64,000 nt of DNA, from contig CAYFOO010000001.1 of NCBI GenBank assembly GCA_964344775.1, positions 13,087 to 77,086 of the forward strand. The letters are read 5' to 3'. Positions 4,300-60,931 of the stretch are shown here, piece after piece. The first letter of the stretch is position 1. Every line of letters starts with the position of its first letter. Under the pieces are notes generated by a model that did not search any database, had not been told where the DNA came from, and saw nothing but the letters and a program-made list of their open reading frames with translations. The DNA is from an uncultured Candidatus Peribacteria bacterium. GTDB lineage: Bacteria > Patescibacteriota > Gracilibacteria > UBA4473. The translations under genes were made by a program, and so were the position numbers.

Positions 4300-5238
4300 A
4301 TGAGCACTTACAAAAAAGGAATAATCGCTTGCCTGATCTCTATGTTTTTTCTTTCCACTTATTCTATTTTTGGAAAGATTTTATTATCAAACTTCACTCC
4401 AAAAATTCTAATTGTTTTTTCTCAAGCAACCTCTACGATCATACTACTATTTTTCTTAGGATTTTTTCCAGAAGCAAAAAGAATATATCGTCTACCAAAA
4501 AAAGATCTTTTTATACTGATAATAGTGGCCATCCTCTCGGCTGTTATCTTTCCTTTGTTAGTTTTAAAAGGGTTAAAAATAACAAGTGCTACTAATTTTA
4601 TCATCATAGGACGGCTAGAGCCTGTTTTGGCAGGAGTTATCTCCTTCCTCTGGCTCAAAGAAAAAACTTCGCTTCATCAAATCCTCGGTGTTATTTTTAT
4701 GATGTTTGGTATATTTTTTATTGTCACAAAGGGAGACTTTTCTACACCCAACCTTGATGCTGGAAGTTTATTTATCATGGGTGGTGCCACAGCAGGAGCT
4801 TTTTCGACTAATATTTTTAAAAAATACCTCTCTCATATTTTACCAGAATTAGTGGTTTTACTAAGAAATTTGGTCGGAGCAATTGTGCTTTTTGCCGTAA
4901 TTTCCTTCTTATTTAGCACAAAGTATGACACTACGCTTTTGTTCGAAAAACAAGTGCTCATTCCTCTTCTTCTTTTTGCGGTGTTCACCATGATCTTCGC
5001 ACAGTTCTTTTGGTATAAGGCATTGGAACTAATCCCTGCTCATACAGCCGCTTCTTTGGCCCTGTCCCCCATCTTTTTTGGAGTAATTTTAGCCATTATT
5101 ATTCTGAAAGAAGAAATTTATAGTTATCACCTCCTGGGAGGAGCTTTTGTGATCGTAGGATTAATCTTCACTATCTTTCACCAAAAAGAACATCCAAAAC
5201 ATCATTTGTTGGAAAAAGTGAAACATTGGTTCCACTAA
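4300..5238 (+). CDS. EamA/DMT-family transporter
   Basis: 312 aa with about ten hydrophobic helices in two similar halves, the usual EamA architecture. Confidence 0.7.
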   Translation: MSTYKKGIIACLISMFFLSTYSIFGKILLSNFTPKILIVFSQATSTIILLFFLGFFPEAKRIYRLPKKDLFILIIVAILSAVIFPLLVLKGLKITSATNFIIIGRLEPVLAGVISFLWLKEKTSLHQILGVIFMMFGIFFIVTKGDFSTPNLDAGSLFIMGGATAGAFSTNIFKKYLSHILPELVVLLRNLVGAIVLFAVISFLFSTKYDTTLLFEKQVLIPLLLFAVFTMIFAQFFWYKALELIPAHTAASLALSPIFFGVILAIIILKEEIYSYHLLGGAFVIVGLIFTIFHQKEHPKHHLLEKVKHWFH

Positions 5239-7523: not shown

Positions 7524-8435
7524 ATGGTTGAATCTGAAGTTTTTGACTGGGGGAATATTGATTTGGACAGAGTCGATCAAGTAACTTCATGGCCAGAAAA
7601 AGCTATTGGCTCTGAAAAACCGCTCGTAGAAGAATCGGAACTTCCCTATTCCAATACTTTTGAGGTCCCAAATTATAATTTAGAATTTGTAGAACAAAAA
7701 TTTCGGCAAGAAGTTATCGTACGAACAAATCTTTTATACACTCAACAAGAAGTTGACTGGATTCTTCAGATTCTCGAAATTGCAAAAGAAAGGCATATTA
7801 ATGGGGAAAGAAAAGAAACTGATAAGAATGGAGTTCCACTCCCTTACGTAATTCATCCTATTGAAACAGCCCTTGATGCTGTACTTGCAGGAGAAGATGC
7901 GGTTGAAGTTTGTATTTGTCTCCTGCACGATACCCGGGAAGACACAGACTTACAAGATTGGCAGTATTTAGTACTTCAAGATAGATTTAAAGGGGGACAT
8001 GATGATGAAGGCCACACAAGAAGAAACGGAATTAGAGTAGAAAAAGGAACCTACTGGCTCACAAATGTAACCCTCGGTGAACCAGATGGAAAAAATGGTG
8101 GTTTCCTCGATCGAGGAGAAAAATTAGATGATGAAAAATACATAGCAAAATCGGAAGAAGCTATAACAGAAGGAGAATTTGGAGTGGTACGTGCAAAAGG
8201 TCGTGATGTAAAAGCAAATCTACTTTCTTTTGGAAGGCTGGTAGAAAATCTGGATCAAGAAATGGCTGATCGAATTACAAGATATATGGTTGGAGCTCAA
8301 ACGAAAATTTTACCACTTTTGGAAAAACTAGAAAACGATTATAGAGCTAAACAATTAGTTATAGAGATAAAAGAAATTTTAAAAAAACTAGAAACACGTT
8401 TGAAAGTAGCTATCTTGTTGTCAGAAAATTTTTAA
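7524..8435 (+). CDS. HD-domain protein, RelA/SpoT-type (p)ppGpp-hydrolase-like
   Basis: Start set to the first ATG (7524); the track uses TTG at 7515. HD motif context: PYVIHPIETA ... CICLLHDTREDT. Confidence 0.6.
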   Translation: MVESEVFDWGNIDLDRVDQVTSWPEKAIGSEKPLVEESELPYSNTFEVPNYNLEFVEQKFRQEVIVRTNLLYTQQEVDWILQILEIAKERHINGERKETDKNGVPLPYVIHPIETALDAVLAGEDAVEVCICLLHDTREDTDLQDWQYLVLQDRFKGGHDDEGHTRRNGIRVEKGTYWLTNVTLGEPDGKNGGFLDRGEKLDDEKYIAKSEEAITEGEFGVVRAKGRDVKANLLSFGRLVENLDQEMADRITRYMVGAQTKILPLLEKLENDYRAKQLVIEIKEILKKLETRLKVAILLSENF

Positions 8436-8452
8436 ATCTTAAACTTTTAGCA

Positions 8453-9013
8453 ATGAAAAAAAGTCTTTTTACTCTTTTAGCTCTCTTTTTCTCTATCCTG
8501 CTCACCGCCTGCCACAGTGACATGGAACAAAAAAAATTACTAAAAAATGAGGATGTTGGATGCCCAGAAATCTACCAACCGGTTTGTGGAAAAATAGAAG
8601 TGCAATGCATCACCACTCCCTGTGATCCAGTAGAACAAACATTTGAAAATGATTGTTTTGCAAAAAAAGCTAAAGCTACAGACATCCAAAAAGGTGCCTG
8701 TAAAACACAAGAGCAAACCTCAACAGAAGATTTAAACACAACTCTAAAAAATGCTCTAAAGGAAAAAATGAAAAGTCTTTCAAAAATAACTGATTTTGAA
8801 GTGAAAGAAATCACCCATCAGACCGACACCCACATCCGAGGAATTGTAAAACTGACCGATGTCCCGGGACAAGGTCCTTTTTTAGCAGTTAAAAACGATG
8901 GACGATGGAAGGTAGTTTTTCAGGGAAATAAAAAAATTATTTGTAGCGAAATGCTCGCTTTTGAATTTCCGGCAGAAATGCTTTTTGATTGTGTGGAAGA
9001 GGTAGAAATCTAA
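8453..9013 (+). CDS. lipoprotein with Kazal-like cysteine module
   Basis: Signal peptide with lipobox LLTAC. The segment CPEIYQPVCGK..C..C..NDC..GAC resembles Kazal spacing. The domain call is tentative. Confidence 0.55.
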   Translation: MKKSLFTLLALFFSILLTACHSDMEQKKLLKNEDVGCPEIYQPVCGKIEVQCITTPCDPVEQTFENDCFAKKAKATDIQKGACKTQEQTSTEDLNTTLKNALKEKMKSLSKITDFEVKEITHQTDTHIRGIVKLTDVPGQGPFLAVKNDGRWKVVFQGNKKIICSEMLAFEFPAEMLFDCVEEVEI

Positions 9014-10017
9014 TTACTATTCTGATTCACCAGCTCTATCCAATCAATCTTCGTCGGACAGCCTCTGATACACCGTCCACACCCCGTACACATCAGCTCT
9101 CCAAACTGTGCTCGAAAGTACTCTAACTTGTGAAATATCCGATGCTTAAACCGATTCACCAGCGTGTTTCGGAAAACGTGTCCTCCCGCGACCAAAGTGA
9201 AGTCCTTGTACATACAAGAATCCCATTTCGCACATCGCGTCCCACAACTCCCCGATAAATCGGTCTCATCCTCAATGTCAAAACACAAGCACGTCGGACA
9301 GAGCGTCGTACAATCCGCACAACTGAGACAATCATCCGCTCCTTTTTGCCAGACTTCATCTTTTTTCCACAACTTCTCGATCTCATGTGTTTTCAACTTT
9401 CGCTCACAATCGGCTAACTCCGCCTCATAATTTTCCAATGTTCCAATCTTCAAATCATCCAAAATCTTCTCCCCCTTCTTTGACCCACTTTTCACATGCC
9501 ACCGATCTCCTCGATCAAAAAGCATCAAATCATACCGATGCGTTAAATTCATCGAATCACAAAAGCAGTATTCGTCCTGCTGCTGGTCGCACCAGAATCC
9601 AACCAAAGTGAGACTCTCACGAAAAGTTTTATAAAAATCCATCGCCGGATCTGACTTGAGAAAAAGATGATCATTCACCGCAAAAGCATTGAGATCACAA
9701 AATCTCAATCCAAAAAGTACTCGTTTTTTTGACTTTTCCTTCGTCACCTTGATCTTTTCTCCTTTGAAACTAAAAAGCTCCTGCGTCTCGGGAAAAACAT
9801 ACTTCTTGCTCGTAAACCAAGAAATCCCCTCAAAACAAATTTCTTCCACTCCCTCCACTGGCAGCATTCGCAAGAATTGATCATCCTCTTTTTTCGCCGG
9901 GGCAATGATCTCCTCGTTCTCCTTTTGCAAAAGTGCAAAGAGATCTTTTAGATTTTGTTTTGGAAAAGAAATGCCTTTTTTATTCATTTCATCCCCATTG
10001 TAAAAAAACTTTTGCAC
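9010..10017 (-). CDS. 4Fe-4S dicluster protein, HydB (group 3b hydrogenase beta) / AsrA-like
   Basis: 335 aa with C-terminal cluster motifs CADCTTLCPTCLCFD and CTGCGRCIRGCP. It lies directly downstream of a hydrogenase endopeptidase gene. Confidence 0.6.
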   Translation of the reverse strand: MQKFFYNGDEMNKKGISFPKQNLKDLFALLQKENEEIIAPAKKEDDQFLRMLPVEGVEEICFEGISWFTSKKYVFPETQELFSFKGEKIKVTKEKSKKRVLFGLRFCDLNAFAVNDHLFLKSDPAMDFYKTFRESLTLVGFWCDQQQDEYCFCDSMNLTHRYDLMLFDRGDRWHVKSGSKKGEKILDDLKIGTLENYEAELADCERKLKTHEIEKLWKKDEVWQKGADDCLSCADCTTLCPTCLCFDIEDETDLSGSCGTRCAKWDSCMYKDFTLVAGGHVFRNTLVNRFKHRIFHKLEYFRAQFGELMCTGCGRCIRGCPTKIDWIELVNQNSN

Positions 10018-10022
10018 AATGT

Positions 10023-10421
10023 CTAAATCTGTTTGTTGTTTGTTGCTTGTTGTTCGTTGATCAAAACTTCAACTTCTTTTTTCAGTTTCTTGAGGTTTTG
10101 CTCCCCAAAAGGAATTCCAATTATCCTCATCTCATCAATCTTTCCACTCTCCCGCATCAGTTTCAAAAAAAATCCCAAATCCAGATCGTGACACGTCGAC
10201 GATCGGGCCAACTCCAAATCCTCAATCCGATCCAAAATCTGAACCTTATCAATTCCCTGCACCACATCCATGATCCAAATTACCCCAGATTCTGAAAGAA
10301 TCTCATTCGGACTTTCTGCTTTCACAAACTCAAAATCCGGATGATTGATTTTGGCCGCTAAATTTTTAGCCACTTCATCACCGGCTACAAATTCGTTCCC
10401 AAAAACAAATATTTTTTGCAT
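10023..10421 (-). CDS. hydrogenase maturation endopeptidase (HycI/HyaD-like)
   Basis: Start moved to MQKIFVFGNEFVAGDE (the GNxxxxD motif). Further blocks are IWIMDVV and STCHDLDLG. The C-terminal NEQQATNNKQI is encoded by the heptamer array 10030..10064. Confidence 0.55.
   Translation of the reverse strand: MQKIFVFGNEFVAGDEVAKNLAAKINHPDFEFVKAESPNEILSESGVIWIMDVVQGIDKVQILDRIEDLELARSSTCHDLDLGFFLKLMRESGKIDEMRIIGIPFGEQNLKKLKKEVEVLINEQQATNNKQI
10030..10064. repeat. heptamer array TGTTTGT TGTTTGT TGCTTGT TGTTCGT TGATCAA
   Basis: In-phase units that encode the C-terminus of the endopeptidase. Confidence 0.7.
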
Positions 10422-10492
10422 TTTTATCTTTTCTATTGATAGATTATCCTTTAAGAACGCATCTTTCAATAATGAAATTTTTATTCTTCTTT

Positions 10493-10527
10493 ACTTTTGA
10501 CTTTTAACTTTTAACTTTCGACTTATT
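10493..10527. repeat. heptamer array ACTTTTG ACTTTTA ACTTTTA ACTTTCG ACTTATT
   Basis: Non-coding or 5'-coding copy of the ACTTTTG family, sitting exactly where a hypF start codon is expected. Confidence 0.75.
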
Positions 10528-12759
10528 CCCACGTACAAATTTACCATCACCGGAACAGTTCAGGGCGTCGGATTTCGACCATTTATTCTCCGTGAGGCAA
10601 AAAAAGCAGGGTTGGAAGGATATGTAAAAAATACAGGCATCGGCGTAGAAATCGTGGCCAACGATAAAAATAAAATTGCAAAAATCCTAGAGAATCTACC
10701 CCCTCTGGCCAAGATTGATCAAATTAAGATTCAAGAAATCAAAGATGAAAAATTTAAAGATTTTGTAATTCAAAATTCTTCCCGTACAGACGCCCAATTT
10801 GGGCGTCTCCATAATACAAAAACAAATTTTTCCATCCCCCCCGATATCACCACTTGTGATAAATGCCAAAAAGAATTATTTGATCGGGATGATCGAAGAT
10901 TTCAATATTTTTTCACGAGCTGCACCGACTGCGGTCCCAGATTTTCGATTACAGAGCAATTTCCCTTCGATCGGGAGAATACCACCTTGGAAAAATTCCC
11001 TATGTGCCCAGACTGCGAAAAAGAATACAAAAATCCGGAAGACCGAAGATTCCACGCACAAACTATCGCCTGTGAAAAATGTGGTCCTGTATTGTCCTTG
11101 TACTGTAAAGACACGCCACGGCGTGTCTCCACAGGAAAAAATGCCATAAAAAAAACAATTGATCTTCTCAAATCCGGAGAAATCATCGCCATCAAATCGA
11201 TCGGCGGATTTAGCTTGATCTGCCTGGCCGATGAAAAAACGGTCACAAAATTACGATCCCTCACCCACCGAAAAAACAAGCCTTTTGCCCTGATGGCCAA
11301 AGACATAAATATGATCAAAAATATTGTTCATATTTCTAAGAAAGAACAAGAAATTTTGGAGTCACGAGAGCGGCCAATCGTACTATTGCATCGTAAAGAC
11401 GCCCAAATTGGGCGTCTCAATCACATATCAGAAAACAGCTTCCTCGGATTTTGCCTCCCCTACACTCCCCTGCACCACCTAATTTTTGAGCATCTGGATG
11501 AACCCATCATCTTCACCTCATCCAATCTCCCCGGCATCCCAATTACCACAAAAAAAGAACAACAATTTGTCCCCCATGTCCTGGATTATGACCGGAAGAT
11601 CGCGAACTTTTCGGATGATTCGATCGTAAAAGTAATCGCTGATCATCCCCTCCTCATCCGCCGAAGTCGCGGATTTGTCCCCACAGAAATTCAGGTCCCT
11701 AAAAATTATCAAATATTTGAAGATGATATCCTCGCCGTCGGAGGAGAAATGAAAAACACCTTTTGTCTCAAAAAAGGAAACTCACTACTCCTTTCTCAAC
11801 ACCTAGGAAACACAGCCGGACTCGAGAACTTTGAAAATTTTCGCATCACGCTTGATAAATTTCTGAAATTTACTGGTGCCAAACCAAAGGTAATTCTGTG
11901 CGATAAAAATCCCTCCTTCAATACCCATCAATTTGCTCATGATTTTGCGAAGAAAAATAAGATTCAATGTGTGGAAATTCAACACCACGTGGCACACGTT
12001 TTTTCGACAGCACTCGAACACAATCTGACGAACTTCATCGGAATCGCTGCAGATGGCACCGGCTGGGGAGAGGGTAACAAAGTCTGGGGCGGAGAAGTTT
12101 TTCATAATGATCAGAGAATTGGAAAACTCGAAGATCAAACCCTCATGGGCGGGGACATCGCAAATAAAGAACCAGTCCGGATGCTCATCGGAATTTTATC
12201 CAAATTTTTAGATGAAAAAGAAATCATAAACCTGCTTCCAAATTTTAATGAAAAATTAATTAAAAATTGTATCAAACAAAAGAAAGAAAACTTCAACTGC
12301 ATTGAAAGCTCCAGTTGTGGACGGATCCTTGATTGCATATCTATCCTCCTCGGATTGGCGGATAAAAATGATTACGAAGGGCGATGTGCACAGATGTTAG
12401 AAATAAAAAATGACCTTCCAAAATTTAAAATTAAAAATTTAAAATTAAAAATTAAGGGAAAAGATAATTTAAATATTTTAGAAACTACTCCTCTTTTTCA
12501 ATTTCTCATTGAAAAGCTGGATAAAATCCCAAAAGAAGAGCTCGCACATCTAGCCCAACTCTACCTGGCTGAAGGGCTTCTGAAAATCACCCAAGATCAA
12601 AACCTCCCCATCGTCTGGAGCGGCGGCTGTGCTTACAACTCAATCATAACCAGCTTTTTGATTTCAAAAAATGTACTATTCAACAAAAACATTCCTTCTG
12701 GAGATGGGGGAATTTCTGCCGGACAAATTGCATACTTCCTTTGGAAAAAATTTAACTAA
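10525..12759 (+). CDS. hypF: [NiFe]-hydrogenase maturation carbamoyltransferase HypF
   Basis: Contains an acylphosphatase motif (GTVQGVGFRPF), two CxxC zinc-finger pairs, a YrdC-like block (IAIKSIGGFSL, KNKPFALM) and a Kae1-like C-terminus. The track start (TTG 10612) cuts the acylphosphatase motif. The frame is open from 10501 with no ATG/GTG/TTG, so ATT 10525 is a guess. Confidence 0.85.
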   Translation: MPTYKFTITGTVQGVGFRPFILREAKKAGLEGYVKNTGIGVEIVANDKNKIAKILENLPPLAKIDQIKIQEIKDEKFKDFVIQNSSRTDAQFGRLHNTKTNFSIPPDITTCDKCQKELFDRDDRRFQYFFTSCTDCGPRFSITEQFPFDRENTTLEKFPMCPDCEKEYKNPEDRRFHAQTIACEKCGPVLSLYCKDTPRRVSTGKNAIKKTIDLLKSGEIIAIKSIGGFSLICLADEKTVTKLRSLTHRKNKPFALMAKDINMIKNIVHISKKEQEILESRERPIVLLHRKDAQIGRLNHISENSFLGFCLPYTPLHHLIFEHLDEPIIFTSSNLPGIPITTKKEQQFVPHVLDYDRKIANFSDDSIVKVIADHPLLIRRSRGFVPTEIQVPKNYQIFEDDILAVGGEMKNTFCLKKGNSLLLSQHLGNTAGLENFENFRITLDKFLKFTGAKPKVILCDKNPSFNTHQFAHDFAKKNKIQCVEIQHHVAHVFSTALEHNLTNFIGIAADGTGWGEGNKVWGGEVFHNDQRIGKLEDQTLMGGDIANKEPVRMLIGILSKFLDEKEIINLLPNFNEKLIKNCIKQKKENFNCIESSSCGRILDCISILLGLADKNDYEGRCAQMLEIKNDLPKFKIKNLKLKIKGKDNLNILETTPLFQFLIEKLDKIPKEELAHLAQLYLAEGLLKITQDQNLPIVWSGGCAYNSIITSFLISKNVLFNKNIPSGDGGISAGQIAYFLWKKFN
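10788..10808. repeat. 21-nt palindrome AGACGCCCAATTTGGGCGTCT inside hypF
   Basis: 10+1+10 perfect. Translated as TDAQFGRL. Confidence 0.85.
11109..11128. repeat. 20-nt palindrome AGACACGCCACGGCGTGTCT inside hypF
   Basis: 9-bp arms. Translated as KDTPRRVS. Confidence 0.85.
11397..11417. repeat. 21-nt palindrome AGACGCCCAAATTGGGCGTCT inside hypF
   Basis: Same as 10788..10808 with the central base complemented, i.e. the opposite orientation. Translated as KDAQIGRL. Confidence 0.85.
12424..12458. repeat. heptamer array TTTAAAA TTAAAAA TTTAAAA TTAAAAA TTAAGGG inside hypF
   Basis: Translated as KFKIKNLKLKIKGK. Confidence 0.75.
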
Positions 12760-13183
12760 TTGTCCCACCAGCTTTTTCAACCGCTTTTTTTGCAGATTCG
12801 GAAATTGGCACCCCAGCGATCTCTACTTTTTTTGTAATTTTTCCGTTCCCCAAAATCTTAGCCATTTCTTTTTTACTTATTAGGTTTTTTGTCCGAAGAG
12901 AATCAATAGTCACCTTTTCTTTGTCTTTAAAATTTTCTTCCAAAACAGATAAATTAATGGCTCGGACCGCTACACGATTTGGATTTTTGAATCCTCGTAA
13001 TTTTGGCATTCGATCTAGAACTCCAGATTGTCCTCCTTCAAATCCAAGTCGTACACCACCTCCTGCTCGAGCGTTTTGCCCATTCATACCTCGACCAGAG
13101 AAAGTTCCTCTACCACTCCCATCACCTCGTCCAACTCTTTTTCGAGTTTTCCGTGCATTTGGCTTCAATTCATTTAGCTTCAT
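12752..13183 (-). CDS. rplO: 50S ribosomal protein L15
   Basis: RVGRGDGSGRGTFSGRGMNGQNARAGGG and the rest are typical L15. Last gene of the spc-like block. Confidence 0.95.
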   Translation of the reverse strand: MKLNELKPNARKTRKRVGRGDGSGRGTFSGRGMNGQNARAGGGVRLGFEGGQSGVLDRMPKLRGFKNPNRVAVRAINLSVLEENFKDKEKVTIDSLRTKNLISKKEMAKILGNGKITKKVEIAGVPISESAKKAVEKAGGTIS

Positions 13184-13212
13184 TGTTAATTAGTTGTTAG
13201 TTATTATTTTCA

Positions 13213-13240: not shown

Positions 13241-13275
13241 GGGATTTGTTTAAATTATGCCCTACCCTACTCCGC

Positions 13276-13295
13276 CGTCCCGAGGACTCGGGACG
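13276..13295. repeat. GC hairpin CGTCCCGAG-GA-CTCGGGACG
   Basis: Centre of the S5|L15 spacer. An inverted sibling with a shared flank lies at 54629..54656. Confidence 0.8.
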
Positions 13296-13304
13296 AAGGC
13301 CGGG

Positions 13305-13332
13305 CAACCTACAACTTCCCACTTACAACCTT
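13305..13332. repeat. heptamer array CAACCTA CAACTTC CCACTTA CAACCTT
   Basis: Reverse-complement family of 13213..13240 (right arm). Confidence 0.75.
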
Positions 13333-14265
13333 TTATTTTTTACTTTTAGCTTTCGACTTTTTGCCTGTTTCCTCTTTCTTCTTCGTTGTTTTCGCTTTTC
13401 CCTTGTCCTCCGTAGCTTTAGCGGAGGAGGATTCCTTCTTTACTGGTGCTTTCTTTTTTACTGCCTTTTTTTCCTCTTCTGTAGTTTTTTCACTTTTAAC
13501 TTTCGACTTTTGACTTTTGACTTCTTCACTTTCCACTTCTGCCTTTTTCTTGTTACTTGGTGGTGCTTCTGTTCGAAGTAAATTTAATGCTTCAAAAGTA
13601 GCATAAGCGGTATTCAACCTATTTCGTGAACCATGAGATTTAGAAAGCACATTTTTGATCCCTGCTAGGTCCAAAATAGTTCGTACTGATCCTCCTGCGA
13701 TCACCCCCGTACCTTCTGGTGCTGGAATTAAAATTACTTTGGTTGCTTTGAAGTAAGCTTCAATATCGTGAGGAATAGAATCTTCAAAAATTGGAACCGT
13801 CACTAATTTTTTCTTTGCCGCTGCTACAGCTTTTTGGATCCCTACCATCACTTCTGTTGCTTTTCCTACCCCAAGTCCGACTCGTCCTTTTTTGTCTCCA
13901 ATCGCTACCGTCACTTGAAATCGCATTCGTCGTCCTCCCTTCACCACACGAGTCACCCGAGAAATCCGGAGGATACTTTCTTCAAATTCCTTTTTTTCTC
14001 GTTCTCGTCCACCACCTCGACGACCACCACGACCACCTCTCTGACGTTTATCCTTGTGATCCCGGAGGTCTCTTTGATCTGGCTTCCCTTTTTCATCAGC
14101 CTTTTTTTCCTCTTTCTTCTCAGAAGCTTCCCTGTCGGTAGAAGCTGAAGCAGCGGAAGATTCTTCTGCCGATTTTTCAGTGGAAGCATCTTCAGGCTGT
14201 GTGGCCACCTCTGCTGGTGCAGCAGTTCCTTCTTTTTCCGGTGTTGTAGTAGCGTCTTCAGACAT
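13333..14265 (-). CDS. rpsE: 30S ribosomal protein S5 with long N- and C-terminal low-complexity extensions
   Basis: The core (ISRVTRVVKGGRRMRF...GTGVIAGGSVRTILDLAGIKNVLSKSHGS) is flanked by about 95 aa of acidic/RGG sequence and about 85 aa of Lys-rich tail. The tail is encoded by repeat modules. Confidence 0.9.
   Translation of the reverse strand: MSEDATTTPEKEGTAAPAEVATQPEDASTEKSAEESSAASASTDREASEKKEEKKADEKGKPDQRDLRDHKDKRQRGGRGGRRGGGREREKKEFEESILRISRVTRVVKGGRRMRFQVTVAIGDKKGRVGLGVGKATEVMVGIQKAVAAAKKKLVTVPIFEDSIPHDIEAYFKATKVILIPAPEGTGVIAGGSVRTILDLAGIKNVLSKSHGSRNRLNTAYATFEALNLLRTEAPPSNKKKAEVESEEVKSQKSKVKSEKTTEEEKKAVKKKAPVKKESSSAKATEDKGKAKTTKKKEETGKKSKAKSKK
13342..13362. repeat. heptamer array ACTTTTA GCTTTCG ACTTTTT (last codons of rpsE)
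   Basis: Encodes ...KSKAKSKK. Confidence 0.7.
13401..13431. repeat. CCTTGTCCTCCGTAGCTTTAGCGGAGGAGGA module inside the rpsE tail
   Basis: Family CCTGTCCGCCGTAGCCTTGGCGAAGGAGGA (42178..42210, 33288..33320). Translated as SSSAKATEDKG. Confidence 0.7.
13492..13526. repeat. heptamer array ACTTTTA ACTTTCG ACTTTTG ACTTTTG ACTTCTT inside the rpsE tail
   Basis: Encodes VKSQKSKVKS, the identical peptide to the carA insertion. Confidence 0.8.
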
Positions 14266-15300: not shown

Positions 15301-15303
15301 GAT

Positions 15304-15394
15304 TTAGTTATTAGTGGTTAGTTATTAGTGGTTAGTTTTTAGTTCTTAGTTTTTAATTCCGAAATCCGCATTTCGCATTCCGAAATTGAATTAG
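15304..15394. repeat. 13-unit in-phase heptamer array filling the whole rplF-rpsH spacer
   Basis: TTAGTTA TTAGTGG TTAGTTA TTAGTGG TTAGTTT TTAGTTC TTAGTTT TTAATTC CGAAATC CGCATTT CGCATTC CGAAATT GAATTAG. Confidence 0.85.
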
Positions 15395-21557: not shown

Positions 21558-22632
21558 ATTCATCAAAAAGATATGCCGCATCCTCCGGCCCCGCACACGC
21601 CTCCGGATGAAACTGTACGGAAAAGATTGGTTTTCCTTTGTGTCGGATACCTTCAACAGACCCATCATTGAGATTTTTGAACCAAACCTCAAAATCAGGC
21701 GGCAAAGAATCCCCATCCACCTCGTATCCGTGATTTTGCGAAGTAATTAAACACCTTTTTGTACCACTTTTGACTTTTGACTTTTGACTTTTGACTTGAA
21801 TTACCGGCTGATTCACCCCCCGATGTCCGTATTTCATCTTTTTTGTTTTTCCTCCCGCAGCAAGTGAAAGAATCTGATTTCCCAAGCAAATCCCAAAAAT
21901 CGGTAATTCCCTTGTCATCGACTGCCGAGCAATTTCGATGGTCTCCACTACTTTTTCTGGATCTCCTGGCCCATTGGAAATGAAAATGCCATCAATCTTC
22001 TCTCCCAGATCAAAAGGTGGATGATTGTACGGCATTCGTAAAATTCGGATTCCTCGCTGAAGAAAATTTCGTAGAATTCCATTCTTCGCTCCACAATCCA
22101 TAAAAGCAATCGTTTTTCCGGTCGGATTTTCCGGTTCCAGAATTTCCATTCCTTCCGGAGAAACAGAGGGGACAAATCTTCCCCCCAGTTCATCTTCAAA
22201 TTTCACTGGTTTTTTGTCGCCCAATTTACCCAAGATTGTTCCCTTTTCTCGTAGAATTTGTGTTAACTCCCGTGTATCAATCCCAGAAATCGCTGGAATA
22301 CCTTGCTCTTTGAGCCAATCCATAAAACTTTTCACTGCTTCGCAATGAGAGAACTTCAACGATTCTTCGGTTAAAATGACTCCTCGAACCCAGATTTTTT
22401 TACTTTCAAATGTTTGATCTACGTTGTCCTGAAAAGACTTTACTTCCGGCACACCATAGTTCCCAATCAGCGGAAAAGTGAACGTCACGATTTGTCCAAA
22501 ATAGCTCGGATCCGTGAGAGTTTCGAGATATCCGGTCATTCCGGTAGTGAAAACAACCTCCCCTTCGGCTTCGCTCTCTGCTCCGAAAGAGGTACCTTCA
22601 AATGTTTTTCCGTTCGCGAGAAAGAGTTTCAT
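21541..22632 (-). CDS. carA: carbamoyl-phosphate synthase small (glutaminase) subunit, with in-frame repeat insertion
   Basis: Typical CarA blocks (GICLGNQIL, GHRGVNQPV, ITSQNHGYEV, FSVQFHPEA). VKSQKSKVKS is encoded by four exact ACTTTTG units at 21766..21793. No carB is adjacent. Confidence 0.9.
   Translation of the reverse strand: MKLFLANGKTFEGTSFGAESEAEGEVVFTTGMTGYLETLTDPSYFGQIVTFTFPLIGNYGVPEVKSFQDNVDQTFESKKIWVRGVILTEESLKFSHCEAVKSFMDWLKEQGIPAISGIDTRELTQILREKGTILGKLGDKKPVKFEDELGGRFVPSVSPEGMEILEPENPTGKTIAFMDCGAKNGILRNFLQRGIRILRMPYNHPPFDLGEKIDGIFISNGPGDPEKVVETIEIARQSMTRELPIFGICLGNQILSLAAGGKTKKMKYGHRGVNQPVIQVKSQKSKVKSGTKRCLITSQNHGYEVDGDSLPPDFEVWFKNLNDGSVEGIRHKGKPIFSVQFHPEACAGPEDAAYLFDEFIREL
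21766..21798. repeat. (ACTTTTG)x4 exact + ACTTG inside carA
   Basis: Exact tandem units counted directly. Confidence 0.9.
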
Positions 22633-27880: not shown

Positions 27881-27910
27881 GTTAACCCACCAAATATTTG
27901 GTGGGTTAAC
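27881..27910. repeat. 30-nt perfect palindrome GTTAACCCACCAAATATTTGGTGGGTTAAC
   Basis: 15+15 perfect, in the divergent region between 24552..27800 and tilS. Confidence 0.9.
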
Positions 27911-27964: not shown

Positions 27965-28861
27965 ATGGAACTCGAAAAAATCGTCACTGATTTTCTAAAA
28001 AAAGAACACCTTACCGATAAAAAACTGCTCTGCATGGTTTCCGGTGGTGTGGACTCCGTCGTGCTGTTAAATATTTTGAATAAAATTTTTGATCAAAAAT
28101 CACTTGCCGTCTTTCATCTAGATCATTCCTCACGAAACAATTCTGACAAAGACTTTCAATTTGTACAAAATTTGTGCTCAAAATTTGGTACTAAATTTTA
28201 TGGGGAAAAATTGGATAAAATCCCTCAAAAAGACAAAGAAAATTTTTGGAGAACAGAACGAAAAAGATTGGCTAAAAAGGCCAAAAAAGACTTCGGAGCA
28301 GAAAGAATCCTCACGGCTCACCATGCCACCGATCTCGTAGAAACGATGCTTTTCAGGCTAACAAAAGGGTGCGGCATCGATGGCCTTTCCCCTTTTGAAA
28401 CCAGCACAAAACCTCTGTGGCAAGTCCCAAAATCAGAAATTGAAAAATATGCACGAGAAAACAAACTCAAATGGATCGAGGATCCCTCAAATGAAAATAC
28501 GGACTTCCAACGAAACCTCATCCGGAAAGAAGTACTCCCCCATCTGCGAAAAATCACCCCCAATCTCGAACAGGTTTTTGTCCGAGAAGCAGAAATTTTT
28601 GGAGAAATGGCGGATTTTTTGGATAAATCTGTTGAAACGGTAGGGACAAGTCGCGACTTGTCCCTACCAGATTTTTTAAATCTCCCAAAAATCCTCCAAA
28701 AAGAGTGGCTCCAAAAAATCGCCAAATCTACTCCTAGTGCTTCAGAGATCGAAGACTGTCTCCGTTGGCTCCACGGCAATCCTCCAGGCAAAAGCAAAAA
28801 AGAAATTGGAGGCACAAAACTTCAGATTGTGAATAATAAAATTCAAATTCTCCCCTGTTAA
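27965..28861 (+). CDS. tilS: tRNA(Ile)-lysidine synthase
   Basis: PP-loop CMVSGGVDS and TAHHATDLVET. Carries a 30-nt perfect palindrome in frame (28639..28668). Confidence 0.85.
   Translation: MELEKIVTDFLKKEHLTDKKLLCMVSGGVDSVVLLNILNKIFDQKSLAVFHLDHSSRNNSDKDFQFVQNLCSKFGTKFYGEKLDKIPQKDKENFWRTERKRLAKKAKKDFGAERILTAHHATDLVETMLFRLTKGCGIDGLSPFETSTKPLWQVPKSEIEKYARENKLKWIEDPSNENTDFQRNLIRKEVLPHLRKITPNLEQVFVREAEIFGEMADFLDKSVETVGTSRDLSLPDFLNLPKILQKEWLQKIAKSTPSASEIEDCLRWLHGNPPGKSKKEIGGTKLQIVNNKIQILPC
28639..28668. repeat. 30-nt perfect palindrome GGTAGGGACAAGTCGCGACTTGTCCCTACC inside tilS
   Basis: Translated as VGTSRDLSLP. A sibling lies at 58206..58233. Confidence 0.9.
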
Positions 28862-33232: not shown

Positions 33233-33264
33233 GGCGAGGTTGGGAAACCTCGCCTACGTTTTTT
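33233..33264 (+). terminator. hairpin GGCGAGGTT-GGGA-AACCTCGCC plus T6 (second terminator-like element; member of a repeat pair)
   Basis: 9-bp stem, then TACGTTTTTT. The same 22-mer occurs inverted at 429..450. Confidence 0.5.
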
Positions 33265-43045: not shown

Positions 43046-43071
43046 AGAGACGCACCAATGGCGGCGTCTCT
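43046..43071. repeat. hairpin AGAGACGC-(10 nt)-GCGTCTCT
   Basis: An intergenic member of the AGACGC-type palindromes. Confidence 0.6.
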
Positions 43072-43091
43072 ACAAAATTTGTATTTTTTTT

Positions 43092-43140
43092 CTAAAAACT
43101 AAGAACTAAAAACTAACAACTAAACTACTTCCACTTAATC
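43092..43140. repeat. heptamer array CTAAAAA CTAAGAA CTAAAAA CTAACAA CTAAACT ACTTCCA CTTAATC
   Basis: Reverse-complement family of TTAGTTN. It spans the redoxin stop codon. Confidence 0.75.
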
Positions 43141-43664
43141 GAACAGCCCATACTCCCCTCCTGTTCCTCCTCCGGAACAGATCCTCCGGACAAAATAGTT
43201 TCCAAAGCTTCCGCCAAATCTCGCTTCGTCACCGCAGACGCATCATCCCAACTGTCATCAATCCTCCCGTGATAGACGAGTTTCCGATCCGGATCGTAGA
43301 CAAAAATATCCGGTGTGCACACTGCTTGATATTCTTTTGCTACCACTTGAGATTCATCTCGCAGGTATGGAAACTTGATCGGCAGATTTTTCATGTTTTC
43401 AAAAGAATCATCCGGATAATTCACCGCATCATTGGGATTGATACCGATGAACTGTACCCCCCGATCTTTGAACGCTGCTGATAAATCATTAAGCCGATCG
43501 AGCACCGCTAACACATATGGACAGTGATTGCACATAAAAACCAAAACCAAAATCTTCGCCTCAGAAAAAGACTCCAGAGAATGATCCTGACCATCTATCC
43601 CGGGAAGATTGAAATCATGAGCAGAAGTACCGAGCAAACCCTCTTTTGAATGTAATAAAACCAT
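43125..43664 (-). CDS. thioredoxin-fold thiol-disulfide oxidoreductase (AhpC/TSA-redoxin family)
   Basis: 179 aa with LVFMCNHCPYV as the CxxC centre. Confidence 0.7.
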   Translation of the reverse strand: MVLLHSKEGLLGTSAHDFNLPGIDGQDHSLESFSEAKILVLVFMCNHCPYVLAVLDRLNDLSAAFKDRGVQFIGINPNDAVNYPDDSFENMKNLPIKFPYLRDESQVVAKEYQAVCTPDIFVYDPDRKLVYHGRIDDSWDDASAVTKRDLAEALETILSGGSVPEEEQEGSMGCSIKWK

Positions 43665-43673
43665 CTTTTTTTA

Positions 43674-43708
43674 AATTACGAATTACGAATGACAAATTAC
43701 AAATTCTT
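43674..43708. repeat. heptamer array AATTACG AATTACG AATGACA AATTACA AATTCTT
   Basis: At the 3' flank and stop of the four-helix-bundle gene. Confidence 0.8.
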
Positions 43709-54373: not shown

Positions 54374-54638
54374 GATTTAGAGGGTTAGATAATACATTTT
54401 TTCTTATTTTCTCAAGATGGTTAGTTCTTTATCTCACCCCCTGAAAAATTAAGAAATACAAAGATTAGCCAAATTTTACTGATACAACTGGCTTCCGTCA
54501 AATTTTAAAAAATTGGCGAATCATACCAATTTCAACTAGGAAGTATTATATTTCCGTCTACGTAATTTTTAAAAACTAATTATACAAACTTCCCACTACG
54601 CTCTTCTTTCCTTTGTTTACCAGCTTCGCCCGACCTTC

Positions 54639-54656
54639 GTCCCGAGGACTCGGGAC
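54639..54656. repeat. GC hairpin GTCCCGAG-GA-CTCGGGAC
   Basis: Sibling of 13276..13295, with shared flank CCCGRCCTTC in the opposite orientation. Confidence 0.8.
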
Positions 54657-54712
54657 TTCGGTGGGGGGACCAGGACAGGTCGTCGGACAGATGGCGAGAT
54701 CGATTTTTTGAA

Positions 54713-57237: not shown

Positions 57238-57265
57238 AATTTCTCGGAAAACTTTCCAAATTTTT

Positions 57266-57293
57266 GAATTTTGAATTTTGAATTTTGAATTTT
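57266..57293. repeat. (GAATTTT)x4 exact
   Basis: Lies between the first and second genes of the secreted-protein operon. Confidence 0.9.
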
Positions 57294-58132
57294 TAATCAT
57301 TGGTGGTGATGAGTTCTTCATAATCCTCTCCGGCATGTTGGTCGCAGAGTTCTGAGGCGGCGTAGTTAAATTTGTCCGGGAATTTGTAGATGGCTTTTCG
57401 GAGGATGGTGCTCATGGCATGTGTTTTTTTGAGAGCCTCCCAGATGGTGGTGAGCCACATGTGAAATCGGTAATTTTGTTCCCATTTTTGATAACGATAG
57501 AGAGTTTCGAAGAGGGCTTTTTTTGATTTTTCTAGTTCAGCTCTGTGCTTTCCTTTATTGCCTCGGTCTGCTTCAAAAAAGCCCACGTTAGTTTTTTCTT
57601 CGAATTGTTTTTCTGCATGGGATTCATCCAGGATCTTCCATTCGATGTATTCTTGGTAGGCACAAAACTCGTTCATCACGGTTTCTGTGACATGACAGGC
57701 AGAATAAAATTTATCAATCGTGGGATTATAGTCTTCTGTGGGGCACATGCTCTCGTATCCGTTGTTGATCTGAGATTTTATCGTCTCCTGCATGTTTTCA
57801 GAGGGTGTGCATTCATCGTTTCTTTCGATGTCTTCGAAGTTGGCCGTGCTGGGAATTTCTTTCCAGATACGGGTAAAGTCCGCATTCATATGATTGATCG
57901 ATTGGGCCATGGCGTCATTGAAGAGGCAGTTGATCTTTTTTTGATATTTTTCCTGTGCTTGAACAAGTGGCTCATCTAGTGAATAACTCAAAGAAGAGTG
58001 GCACAGCTGCTTCTGCGTCATTTCTGCGAAGTTGTCTCGGAGCCCACTGTCTAAAGAAAAAGCTGCAGGAACTTGAAAGATGAATGTTCCGAGCAAAAAT
58101 ATGGAAATGACCCTTTTTTTGTTTTTGTTCAC
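57293..58132 (-). CDS. secreted hypothetical protein (first gene of operon)
   Basis: Signal peptide ...FIFQVPAAFS. 7 Cys. No recognisable domain. Confidence 0.6.
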   Translation of the reverse strand: MNKNKKRVISIFLLGTFIFQVPAAFSLDSGLRDNFAEMTQKQLCHSSLSYSLDEPLVQAQEKYQKKINCLFNDAMAQSINHMNADFTRIWKEIPSTANFEDIERNDECTPSENMQETIKSQINNGYESMCPTEDYNPTIDKFYSACHVTETVMNEFCAYQEYIEWKILDESHAEKQFEEKTNVGFFEADRGNKGKHRAELEKSKKALFETLYRYQKWEQNYRFHMWLTTIWEALKKTHAMSTILRKAIYKFPDKFNYAASELCDQHAGEDYEELITTND

Positions 58133-58205: not shown

Positions 58206-58233
58206 GTAGGGACGTGTCGCGACACGTCCCTAC
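58206..58233. repeat. 28-nt perfect palindrome GTAGGGACGTGTCGCGACACGTCCCTAC
   Basis: Intergenic sibling of the tilS palindrome. It differs by GT/AC versus AA/TT, changed on both arms. Confidence 0.9.
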
Positions 58234-60709: not shown

Positions 60710-60931
60710 AGAAAAAAGTTTTTAGTTTTTCGTTATTTAGTTTTTAGTTATCAACAATTTGAAGTAAACCTAAATTTAGAGACTGCGGCTATTGTGTAGT
60801 AAATCAGCGGAAATTGCAAGGGGATTTTTTTGGACGATTATTAATGACGGAAGAATAGGGGGGCCATCCTACTGCAAACTTTACAAATGAATATGAGCTT
60901 TGGAGGATACGTTAAAAATTACGAGAATTAT

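Follow-up and report, generated by a model that had tools for sequence, protein, structure and literature searches.

The gene hypF, encoding the carbamoyltransferase HypF, lies at positions 10525-12759 (+ strand) of a 64-kb stretch of DNA from an uncultured Candidatus Peribacteria bacterium (contig CAYFOO010000001.1, positions 13,087 to 77,086), a lineage of the candidate phyla radiation (CPR, Patescibacteria); the whole stretch is called the window hereafter, and positions are counted from its first letter. Three GC-rich palindromes are carried in the reading frame of this gene. They are very probably copies of "double-foot" repetitive extragenic palindromes (REPs), of the type that goes with subclass 2.4 of the tyrosine transposases associated with REPs (RAYTs), sitting in frame in a hypF that still looks functional. 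The core of the element is identical to REPs that flank RAYT genes, it is dispersed over genomes, and the sites that it occupies in the protein are loop sites. It is not a new kind of element; what is new is the host lineage and the gene.

REPs of the RAYT type are thereby placed in a CPR/Patescibacteria-like genome, that is, among very small genomes in which such repeats are unexpected; according to Quentin et al. (2018, PMC6006769), it is chiefly the larger genomes that contain Y1-transposase genes. In addition, two species can be compared at orthologous intragenic REP positions, where the hairpin is seen to outlive its own sequence; this persistence, together with the turnover of the centre, bears on how sub-families of REPs that differ by complementary changes in the stem come about. 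Annotators of CPR proteins should regard short in-frame palindromes rich in GC as repeat-derived decorations of loops, not as signs of pseudogenes.

The Three Hairpins in hypF

All three copies are on the + strand. Copy 1 (10784-10812) is composed of GTAC, the hairpin AGACGCCCAATTTGGGCGTCT (10788-10808) and CCAT and encodes (R)TDAQFGRL(H); copy 2 (11105-11132) is composed of GTAA, AGACACGCCACGGCGTGTCT (11109-11128) and CCAC and encodes (C)KDTPRRVS(T); and copy 3 (11393-11421) is composed of GTAA, AGACGCCCAAATTGGGCGTCT (11397-11417) and CAAT and encodes (R)KDAQIGRL(N). A preliminary description of this DNA, made from the sequence alone, had placed the three hairpins at exactly these positions with exactly these sequences, and had called them perfect palindromes. 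Their stems are fully paired, but one or two central bases are not, so strictly they are hairpins: copies 1 and 3 each have a 10-bp stem and a 1-nt loop, and copy 2 has a 9-bp stem and a 2-nt loop. They share a single codon phase of the hypF frame and are read, as had been noted, as DAQFGRL, DTPRRVS and DAQIGRL; two of the three reading frames of this type of element are free of stop codons. The four bases on either side, which are called feet here, are part of a flank common to the three copies, CGTA[CA]-AGAC...GTCT-C[CA]A, and therefore the repeated unit is about 29 bp and exceeds the palindrome proper.

Local folding of the RNA, a check that had been proposed, gave stable hairpins of -15.4, -18.8 and -15.5 kcal/mol for copies 1, 2 and 3, respectively, with z of about -4.4 to -4.9 and no shuffle matching any of them. 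With stems of 9-10 bp, loops of 1-2 nt and energies of -15 to -19 kcal/mol, the elements belong among the short GC-rich hairpins of 20-40 bp. The pattern AGACRC..GYGTCT occurs four times in the window, where 0.04 occurrences are expected and four or more were obtained in none of 100 shuffles. GC-rich perfect stems in general are also in excess over dinucleotide shuffles, with 16 of at least 8 bp (2.1 in the shuffles) and eight of at least 9 bp (0.43 in the shuffles).

Copies 1 and 3 had been taken for one element in two opposite orientations. A double-foot REP is its own reverse complement save for the central base, so the central A or T is its sole asymmetry and could indeed mark the orientation; the degenerate feet of the two copies (GTAC..CCAT and GTAA..CAAT), however, point the same way.

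Identity of the Element: a Probable Double-Foot REP Linked to RAYT

When the GTDB genomes, one per species, were scanned for exact matches, the 21-mer AGACGCCCAAWTTGGGCGTCT was found in at least 119 genome loci from many phyla, including, among the matches listed, Bacteroidota, Ignavibacteriota, Desulfobacterota, Nitrospirota, Spirochaetota, Cloacimonadota and Peribacteria. In the listed loci it is overwhelmingly set as GTAG-AGACGCCCAAWTTGGGCGTCT-CTAC, and most of the 153 copies of the 21-mer in other genomes have intact feet; the commonest of 234 scored hairpins (75/234) was GTAGAGAC. The supposition that the palindromes form a dispersed family and are not confined to hypF is borne out by these loci and by the further copies in the window described below.

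The link to a transposase is direct. On a Chitinophagales contig (locus L078), clusters of the 21-mer flank an open reading frame (ORF) of 180 aa in the arrangement known as a REPtron. The product is matched by Pfam Y1_Tnp (PF01797, IS200-like transposase) at 26.3 bits against a cutoff of 23, and it has the motifs NHTH, WQ and YISNNP. Homologues of this RAYT (E 1e-15 to 1e-69) are present in 27 of the 119 listed hairpin loci, the hairpin being in frame inside the RAYT ORF in 17 of the 27 and within 600 bp in 15. One of these RAYT genes, that of L007, encodes CTDAQFGRLS, which is the peptide, and also the DNA, of hypF site 1. In agreement with these features, Quentin et al. (PMC6006769) described the REPs of TnpA_REP subclass 2.4 (Bertels group 4) as "double foot", with GT[AG]G and C[TC]AC, reported in-frame insertion of REPs within tnpA_REP itself for this subclass, and found the subclass abundant in Cyanobacteria and Bacteroidetes with a scattered occurrence elsewhere.

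Among 2.9 million viral contigs the 21-mer was matched only three times, so phages do not carry it to any major extent. Rfam, searched with the entire 64-kb window, gave no family at the gathering threshold, tRNAs included. Literature searches for the literal palindrome sequences returned unrelated primer matches only, and those for palindromes in Peregrinibacteria returned nothing specific.

Two observations on the same REP in other hosts may be added. In a Kapaibacterium metagenome-assembled genome (MAG), an MmeI-family restriction-modification gene (L053, 2822-5860, minus strand) has three in-frame copies (4207, 4255 and 5470), with all Pfam MmeI domains still detected. In two Bacteroidota loci (L092, 2979-3955, and L057, 2300-2462) the REP is part of longer tandem units, of about 97 bp and 54 bp, that adjoin or lie inside a RAYT gene.

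Integrity of hypF

The frame of hypF is open from 10501, and, as the preliminary description had pointed out in noting a missing start, no ATG, GTG or TTG is found in it before the TTG at 10612. ATT is an accepted but weak bacterial start codon. The putative start is the ATT at 10525, which aligns exactly with the GTG start of the nearest relative, P0002, a HypF of 80% identity from a MAG labelled Candidatus Peribacteria (locus L001).

The product is a full-length HypF. It was aligned end to end with PDB 4g9i (residues 4-736, E 1.1e-141), Pfam zf-HYPF, Sua5_yciO_yrdC and HypF_C were detected in it, and the acylphosphatase, two zinc-finger, YrdC-like and Kae1-like domains are present with their conserved residues. 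All invariant columns of an alignment of 18 HypF sequences are retained, and the structure was predicted with a pLDDT (predicted local distance difference test) of 86.3 and a pTM (predicted template modelling score) of 0.85. Between hypF and its L001 orthologue 39% of third positions differ, dS is about 1.0 and dN/dS is 0.116; the gene is under purifying selection. It had been asked whether a gene with several insertions and no canonical start is still functional. To judge from the low dN/dS, the retained invariant columns, the confident model and the alignment of the ATT with the orthologue's GTG start, this hypF still looks functional and appears to remain a working gene, not a dead one.

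Sites in the Protein and the Question of Insertion

Copy 1 falls in the linker between the acylphosphatase domain and the zinc fingers, where residues 91-103 are the only segment of the model with a pLDDT below 50. Copy 2, at about residues 196-203, follows zinc finger 2 and is inside a strand-turn-strand predicted there (strands 191-195 and 198-204), and copy 3 is in the YrdC-like domain, in a loop flanked by strands 286-291 and 307-311. Alignment with HypF orthologues, which had been suggested as a check, showed added residues at all three sites: by the 18-sequence and structural alignments the net gain is about 9 residues in the linker (site 1), about 4-7 residues after the second zinc finger (site 2) and about 3-4 residues in the YrdC-domain loop (site 3), and the 80% orthologue keeps hairpins at these places. 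The earlier statement that the elements are insertions between HypF modules is thus right as to the linker and loop positions, but at sites 2 and 3 only about 3-7 residues are gained, and therefore the palindromes there partly replace variable loop sequence.

For related hairpins, although not for the hypF copies, insertion can be proved directly. The Fer4_22 gene upstream of hypF (9010-9987 in the window, 8257-9321 in L001), which encodes a hydrogenase beta-like subunit, has an in-frame insertion of 29 residues in L001, holding two GC-rich hairpins, GTCCCGACAAAGTCGGGAC and GCTCCCTTTAATAAAGGGAGC, and the window has the empty site. In a third locus, L123, a different hairpin, CCCCCC..GGGGG, is found in the same loop of Fer4_22.

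Other HypF genes have their own hairpins. In L123, GTAG-type REPs occupy sites 2 and 3 of hypF and two places besides; the hypF of L124 has GTAGGGACACGCCGAGGCGTGTCC, a relative of copy 2, at another site, in the Kae1-like part; and in L125 and L126 hairpins of the form CCCCC..GGGGG are found at site 3 as well as elsewhere. The tolerant loops of HypF have been hit repeatedly.

Comparison of the Orthologous Sites

The 80% orthologue in L001 has hairpins at the same three codon positions and with the same degenerate feet, and therefore the hypF copies were inherited and predate the split of the two species. At site 1 the window has AGACGCCCAATTTGGGCGTCT and L001 has AGACGCCCCGCCGGGGCGTCT; at site 2 they have AGACACGCCACGGCGTGTCT and AGACGCAACATGTTGCGTCT, respectively; and at site 3 the L001 sequence is identical to AGACGCCCAAATTGGGCGTCT minus the final CTC. 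At sites 1 and 2, five stem pairs are altered on both arms and none is broken, at a dS of about 1.0. By rough arithmetic, independent drift of the two arms has a chance of the order of 1e-4 or less of giving this result, and it cannot explain the paired changes. Site 3 is identical over 18 nt despite the 39% divergence at third positions.

The arms would have co-varied in one of two ways: either the centres co-evolved in place, by selection for the hairpin or by templated correction from arm to arm, or an element was replaced by another member of the family. The L001 variant of site 2 is itself a widespread double-foot REP, with a GTAG foot in 85 of 135 metagenomic copies and, in L140, an array of it flanking a RAYT. 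However, REP centres were very diverse in the sampled loci, and because this diversity may let almost any centre be found, the comparison of replacement with drift does not discriminate.

A further reading goes beyond this and takes the hairpins of reduced CPR genomes to be maintained as structures, through selection on the folding of mRNA or DNA or through a hairpin-specific swapping or repair enzyme, and possibly to be concentrated in a laterally mobile hydrogenase/hyp module. It is suggested by the persistence through a dS of about 1 with full turnover of the central pairs and no broken pair, and by the clustering in hypF and hydrogenase genes of relatives; we regard it as rather unlikely.

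In the window three of the four AGAC-type copies lie within hypF, which makes up 3.5% of the sequence; rough arithmetic gives a P of about 2e-4 for a gene named in advance and, once the choice among about 58 genes is allowed for, of about 0.01. The GC-rich hairpins of L123, seven in number, are all in hydrogenase or hyp genes, which span 41% of that locus. These small samples give hints of an enrichment of REPs in the hydrogenase module.

Origin of the Hairpins and Alternative Explanations

REPs, small and non-autonomous, form hairpins in single-stranded DNA, and HUH/Y1 transposases (RAYT, TnpA_REP) bind and cut them. In the mechanism proposed here, copies arriving in coding DNA survive only if the net change of length is a multiple of three, the frame is free of stop codons and the site is a tolerant loop or linker. 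The hypF copies were there before the split from the species with the 80%-identical HypF; since then their GTAG/CTAC feet have decayed, and because of this decay they are probably immobile fossils. Even so, their stems have remained fully paired through the change of the central pairs, by way either of templated correction or selection for the hairpin, or of replacement by a family member.

Several findings weigh against this account. The 5' feet of the hypF copies (GTAC, GTAA and GTAA) keep three of the four bases of GT[AG]G, and of the 3' feet (CCAT, CCAC and CAAT) only that of copy 2, CCAC, fits C[TC]AC. Among the six copies in the window there are five different centres, whereas the arrays beside RAYT genes are homogeneous. 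Sites 2 and 3 gain little length on balance over other HypFs, and no hypF orthologue with an empty site was to be had above 55% identity, so that the insertion of the three hypF copies is something that we infer and do not see. Finally, a tblastn search for a RAYT found none in the 64-kb window and about 80 kb of related CPR loci (best E 2.6), and Pfam searches on ten unannotated ORFs near hairpins revealed no transposase. Mobilisation by a RAYT within this CPR lineage, which we infer, is therefore unproven.

The strongest rival explanation holds that the hairpins are functional structures selected in place, acting in ribosome pausing, in mRNA stability or regulation, or in DNA binding by a host protein, and that their likeness to REPs reflects co-option. 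The observations that speak for it are the persistence at orthologous sites over a dS of about 1.0, in which both arms changed at five pairs without a single pair being broken, the 18 nt of site 3 that have stayed identical, the position of two of the three copies at domain borders, the stability of the RNA hairpins, and the unusual richness in hairpins of HypF and hydrogenase genes of relatives, as in L123. The same sequences, however, are generic REPs that occur in intergenic regions, in unrelated genes and in other phyla, and the positions and families of the hairpins vary among HypF orthologues. Moreover, the final 3 nt of the site-3 element are missing from L001, whose ORF is unharmed by the loss. 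Templated mutation or correction from arm to arm, known from quasi-palindromes, can keep palindromes perfect in the absence of selection. This explanation is thus considered improbable, and copies of a REP family are preferred.

Another conceivable origin lies within the variable loops themselves, where template switching or fold-back repair would have made the palindromes without any descent from mobile REPs. Perfectly paired centres that differ between orthologues, the small net change of length at sites 2 and 3 and the failure to see a RAYT locally would all be compatible with such an origin. It is made very improbable by the outer stem and the remnants of the feet (GTA-AGAC..GTCT-C.A.), which match the double-foot REPs flanking RAYT genes, the whole 21-mer being identical to them; by the site-2 variant of L001, for which, as a widespread GTAG-footed REP (85/135) in its own right, an independent origin is very unlikely; and by the empty site already seen for related hairpins in the Fer4_22 gene.

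Three further possibilities, namely chance, an assembly artefact and a side effect of a conserved peptide motif, have only the AT-rich and repeat-rich nature of the genome in their favour and can be dismissed, since four pattern matches stand against 0.04 expected, the peptides differ between orthologues with the pairing kept, an identical hypF product (715 aa, from the TTG at 10612 and spanning the three sites) is present on contigs from two sequencing runs, including an independent Logan assembly of ERR2281803 (L003), the site-2 element is found verbatim in L002 and L003, and the related MAG has hairpins at the same three places.

Relation to Known Repeats

With the subclass 2.4 double-foot REPs (PMC6006769) the family has in common the hairpin, which in copies with intact feet stands between GT[AG]G and C[TC]AC, and the scattered occurrence over phyla; the elements described here differ in the CPR (Peribacteria-like) host, in that no RAYT is present in the sequence covered, in the degenerate feet of the hypF copies and in the heterogeneity of centres among the window's copies.

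Di Nocera, De Gregorio and Rocco (2013, PMC3733652) described intragenic GTAG and CGTC REPs that are translated within unrelated genes, sometimes several per gene, at sites argued to be linkers or loops, and with sub-families differing through complementary stem changes. In all of these respects the hypF copies, short translated REPs in the gene of a known protein, are similar to them. Their examples came mostly from genes for replication and repair in Opitutus, Rickettsia, Thauera and others, whereas the present ones come from a CPR lineage, from hypF and hydrogenase genes, and allow orthologous sites to be compared.

The preliminary description had called the palindromes RPE-like, after the Rickettsia palindromic elements (RPEs). 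The phenomenon is analogous, because in both cases palindromic repeats are carried in frame in functional genes and RPE-4 and RPE-6 have been equated with intragenic REPs (PMC3733652), but the family is the GTAG-footed REP/RAYT family. RPE-4 and RPE-6 are of the CGTC type and RPE-1 is longer than single REPs, while the elements here are 21-29 bp long, of the GTAG type and present in many phyla. RPE-1 exceeds 100 bp and is specific to Rickettsia. An assignment to the Rickettsia RPEs was therefore rejected, with no direct comparison to an RPE sequence, on the length of 21-29 bp, the CPR host and the match to GTAG REPs, all of which set the elements apart from the description of RPEs. Miniature inverted-repeat transposable elements, which have 70-300 bp, terminal inverted repeats enclosing a body that is not palindromic, and a target-site duplication, were likewise rejected, since these are single hairpins of 21-29 bp and no duplication was seen in the flanks.

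REPINs (Bertels and Rainey 2011, PMC3116915) are also non-autonomous hairpin repeats thought to be moved by a single-copy RAYT; they are, however, REP doublets with a spacer and are typically extragenic, whereas single symmetric hairpins, several of them in genes, are found here.

Other Family Members and Hairpins

The 64-kb window contains four AGAC-type and two GGAC-type copies of the family. The fourth AGAC-type copy, GTAGAGACGCCGCCATTGGTGCGTCTCT (43046-43073, minus strand), is intergenic, 51 nt downstream of the stop codon of the gene at 43125-43664; it is the intergenic relative that had been reported near 43046, and it carries an intact GTAG foot on the minus strand. One GGAC variant is a perfect double-foot REP of 30 bp, GGTAGGGACAAGTCGCGACTTGTCCCTACC (28639-28668, + strand), in frame in a PP-loop (TilS-like) gene with Pfam ATP_bind_3; it encodes VGTSRDLSLP and folds with -23.5 kcal/mol. 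The other, GTAGGGACGTGTCGCGACACGTCCCTAC (58206-58233), is a perfect double-foot REP between genes. Nine of the 16 GC-rich hairpins are in the non-coding 12% of the window. In the related MAG the exact 21-mer is present in the radical-SAM gene of L001 and on another contig, so that multiple dispersed copies are found both there and in the window.

Hairpins of other kinds were observed as well. A family with GGCGAGGTTGGGAAACCTCGCC occurs in both orientations at 33233-33254 and 431-448 of the window and, in the Peribacteria MAG (L067, about position 4654), directly beside an AGAC REP. A 41-nt element with the core GTCCCGAGGACTCGGGAC is present twice in opposite orientation with an 80% match, at 13265-13305 and 54628-54668; the former copy is located between rpsE and rplO, the usual place of rpmD (L30), and rpmD is not there. 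This lack of rpmD, with the Candidatus Peribacteria label of the MAG that holds P0002, marks the host as a Peregrinibacteria-like CPR bacterium. Related to this element are the GTCCCGAC..GTCGGGAC hairpins of L001. In addition, a perfect 30-bp palindrome, GTTAACCCACCAAATATTTGGTGGGTTAAC (27881-27910), is intergenic, situated between two divergently oriented genes, the PP-loop gene and one for an SLH-domain protein of 1082 aa, and may be an operator.

Heptamer Arrays and the Hydrogenase Neighbourhood

A heptamer array in the Kae1-like part of hypF had been counted as a fourth insertion in the gene. The array is real in the DNA: Tandem Repeats Finder (TRF) reported AAAATTA with period 7 and 5.1 copies at 12420-12455 (+ strand, KFKIKNLKLKIK), inside hypF and outside the REP family. 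In the 18-sequence alignment, however, it adds no length relative to other HypFs, and the corresponding DNA is heptameric also in the orthologues of L001 (80%) and L123 (55%), so the claim of a fourth insertion was rejected. It is a phenomenon different from the REPs. Period-7 tandem arrays of many different units fill more than 35 TRF rows in the window, for example at 10493-10518, 15303-15355, 21766-21797, 43092-43124, 43673-43705, 57262-57297 and 60717-60749; they are mostly intergenic, 0-115 nt upstream of start codons, with few inside genes, and one of them stops 7 nt before the putative ATT start of hypF.

The hydrogenase locus of the window (8400-13200) is fragmentary and consists only of the Fer4_22 subunit, an ORF of 132 aa and hypF; no NiFe large or small subunit and none of hypA-E was found in the 64 kb. 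In L123, L124 and L126, which are more distantly related, hypA, C, D and E are directly downstream of hypF. L001 shares the order Fer4_22, small ORF, hypF, and downstream of its hypF to the end of the contig (about 2.5 kb) no Pfam-annotated hyp gene was found among the two genes called, one of which had no Pfam hit and one of which was not looked up. Because L001 shares this arrangement and hypF is under purifying selection, the hyp partners are probably located elsewhere in the genome.

Ribosomal protein S5 (gene at 13333-14265) has 310 aa and is extended at both termini by long stretches that are charged and of low complexity. The DNA encoding its C-terminal tail (13466-13547) is repetitive in heptamers and similar to the array found upstream of hypF (10481-10524).

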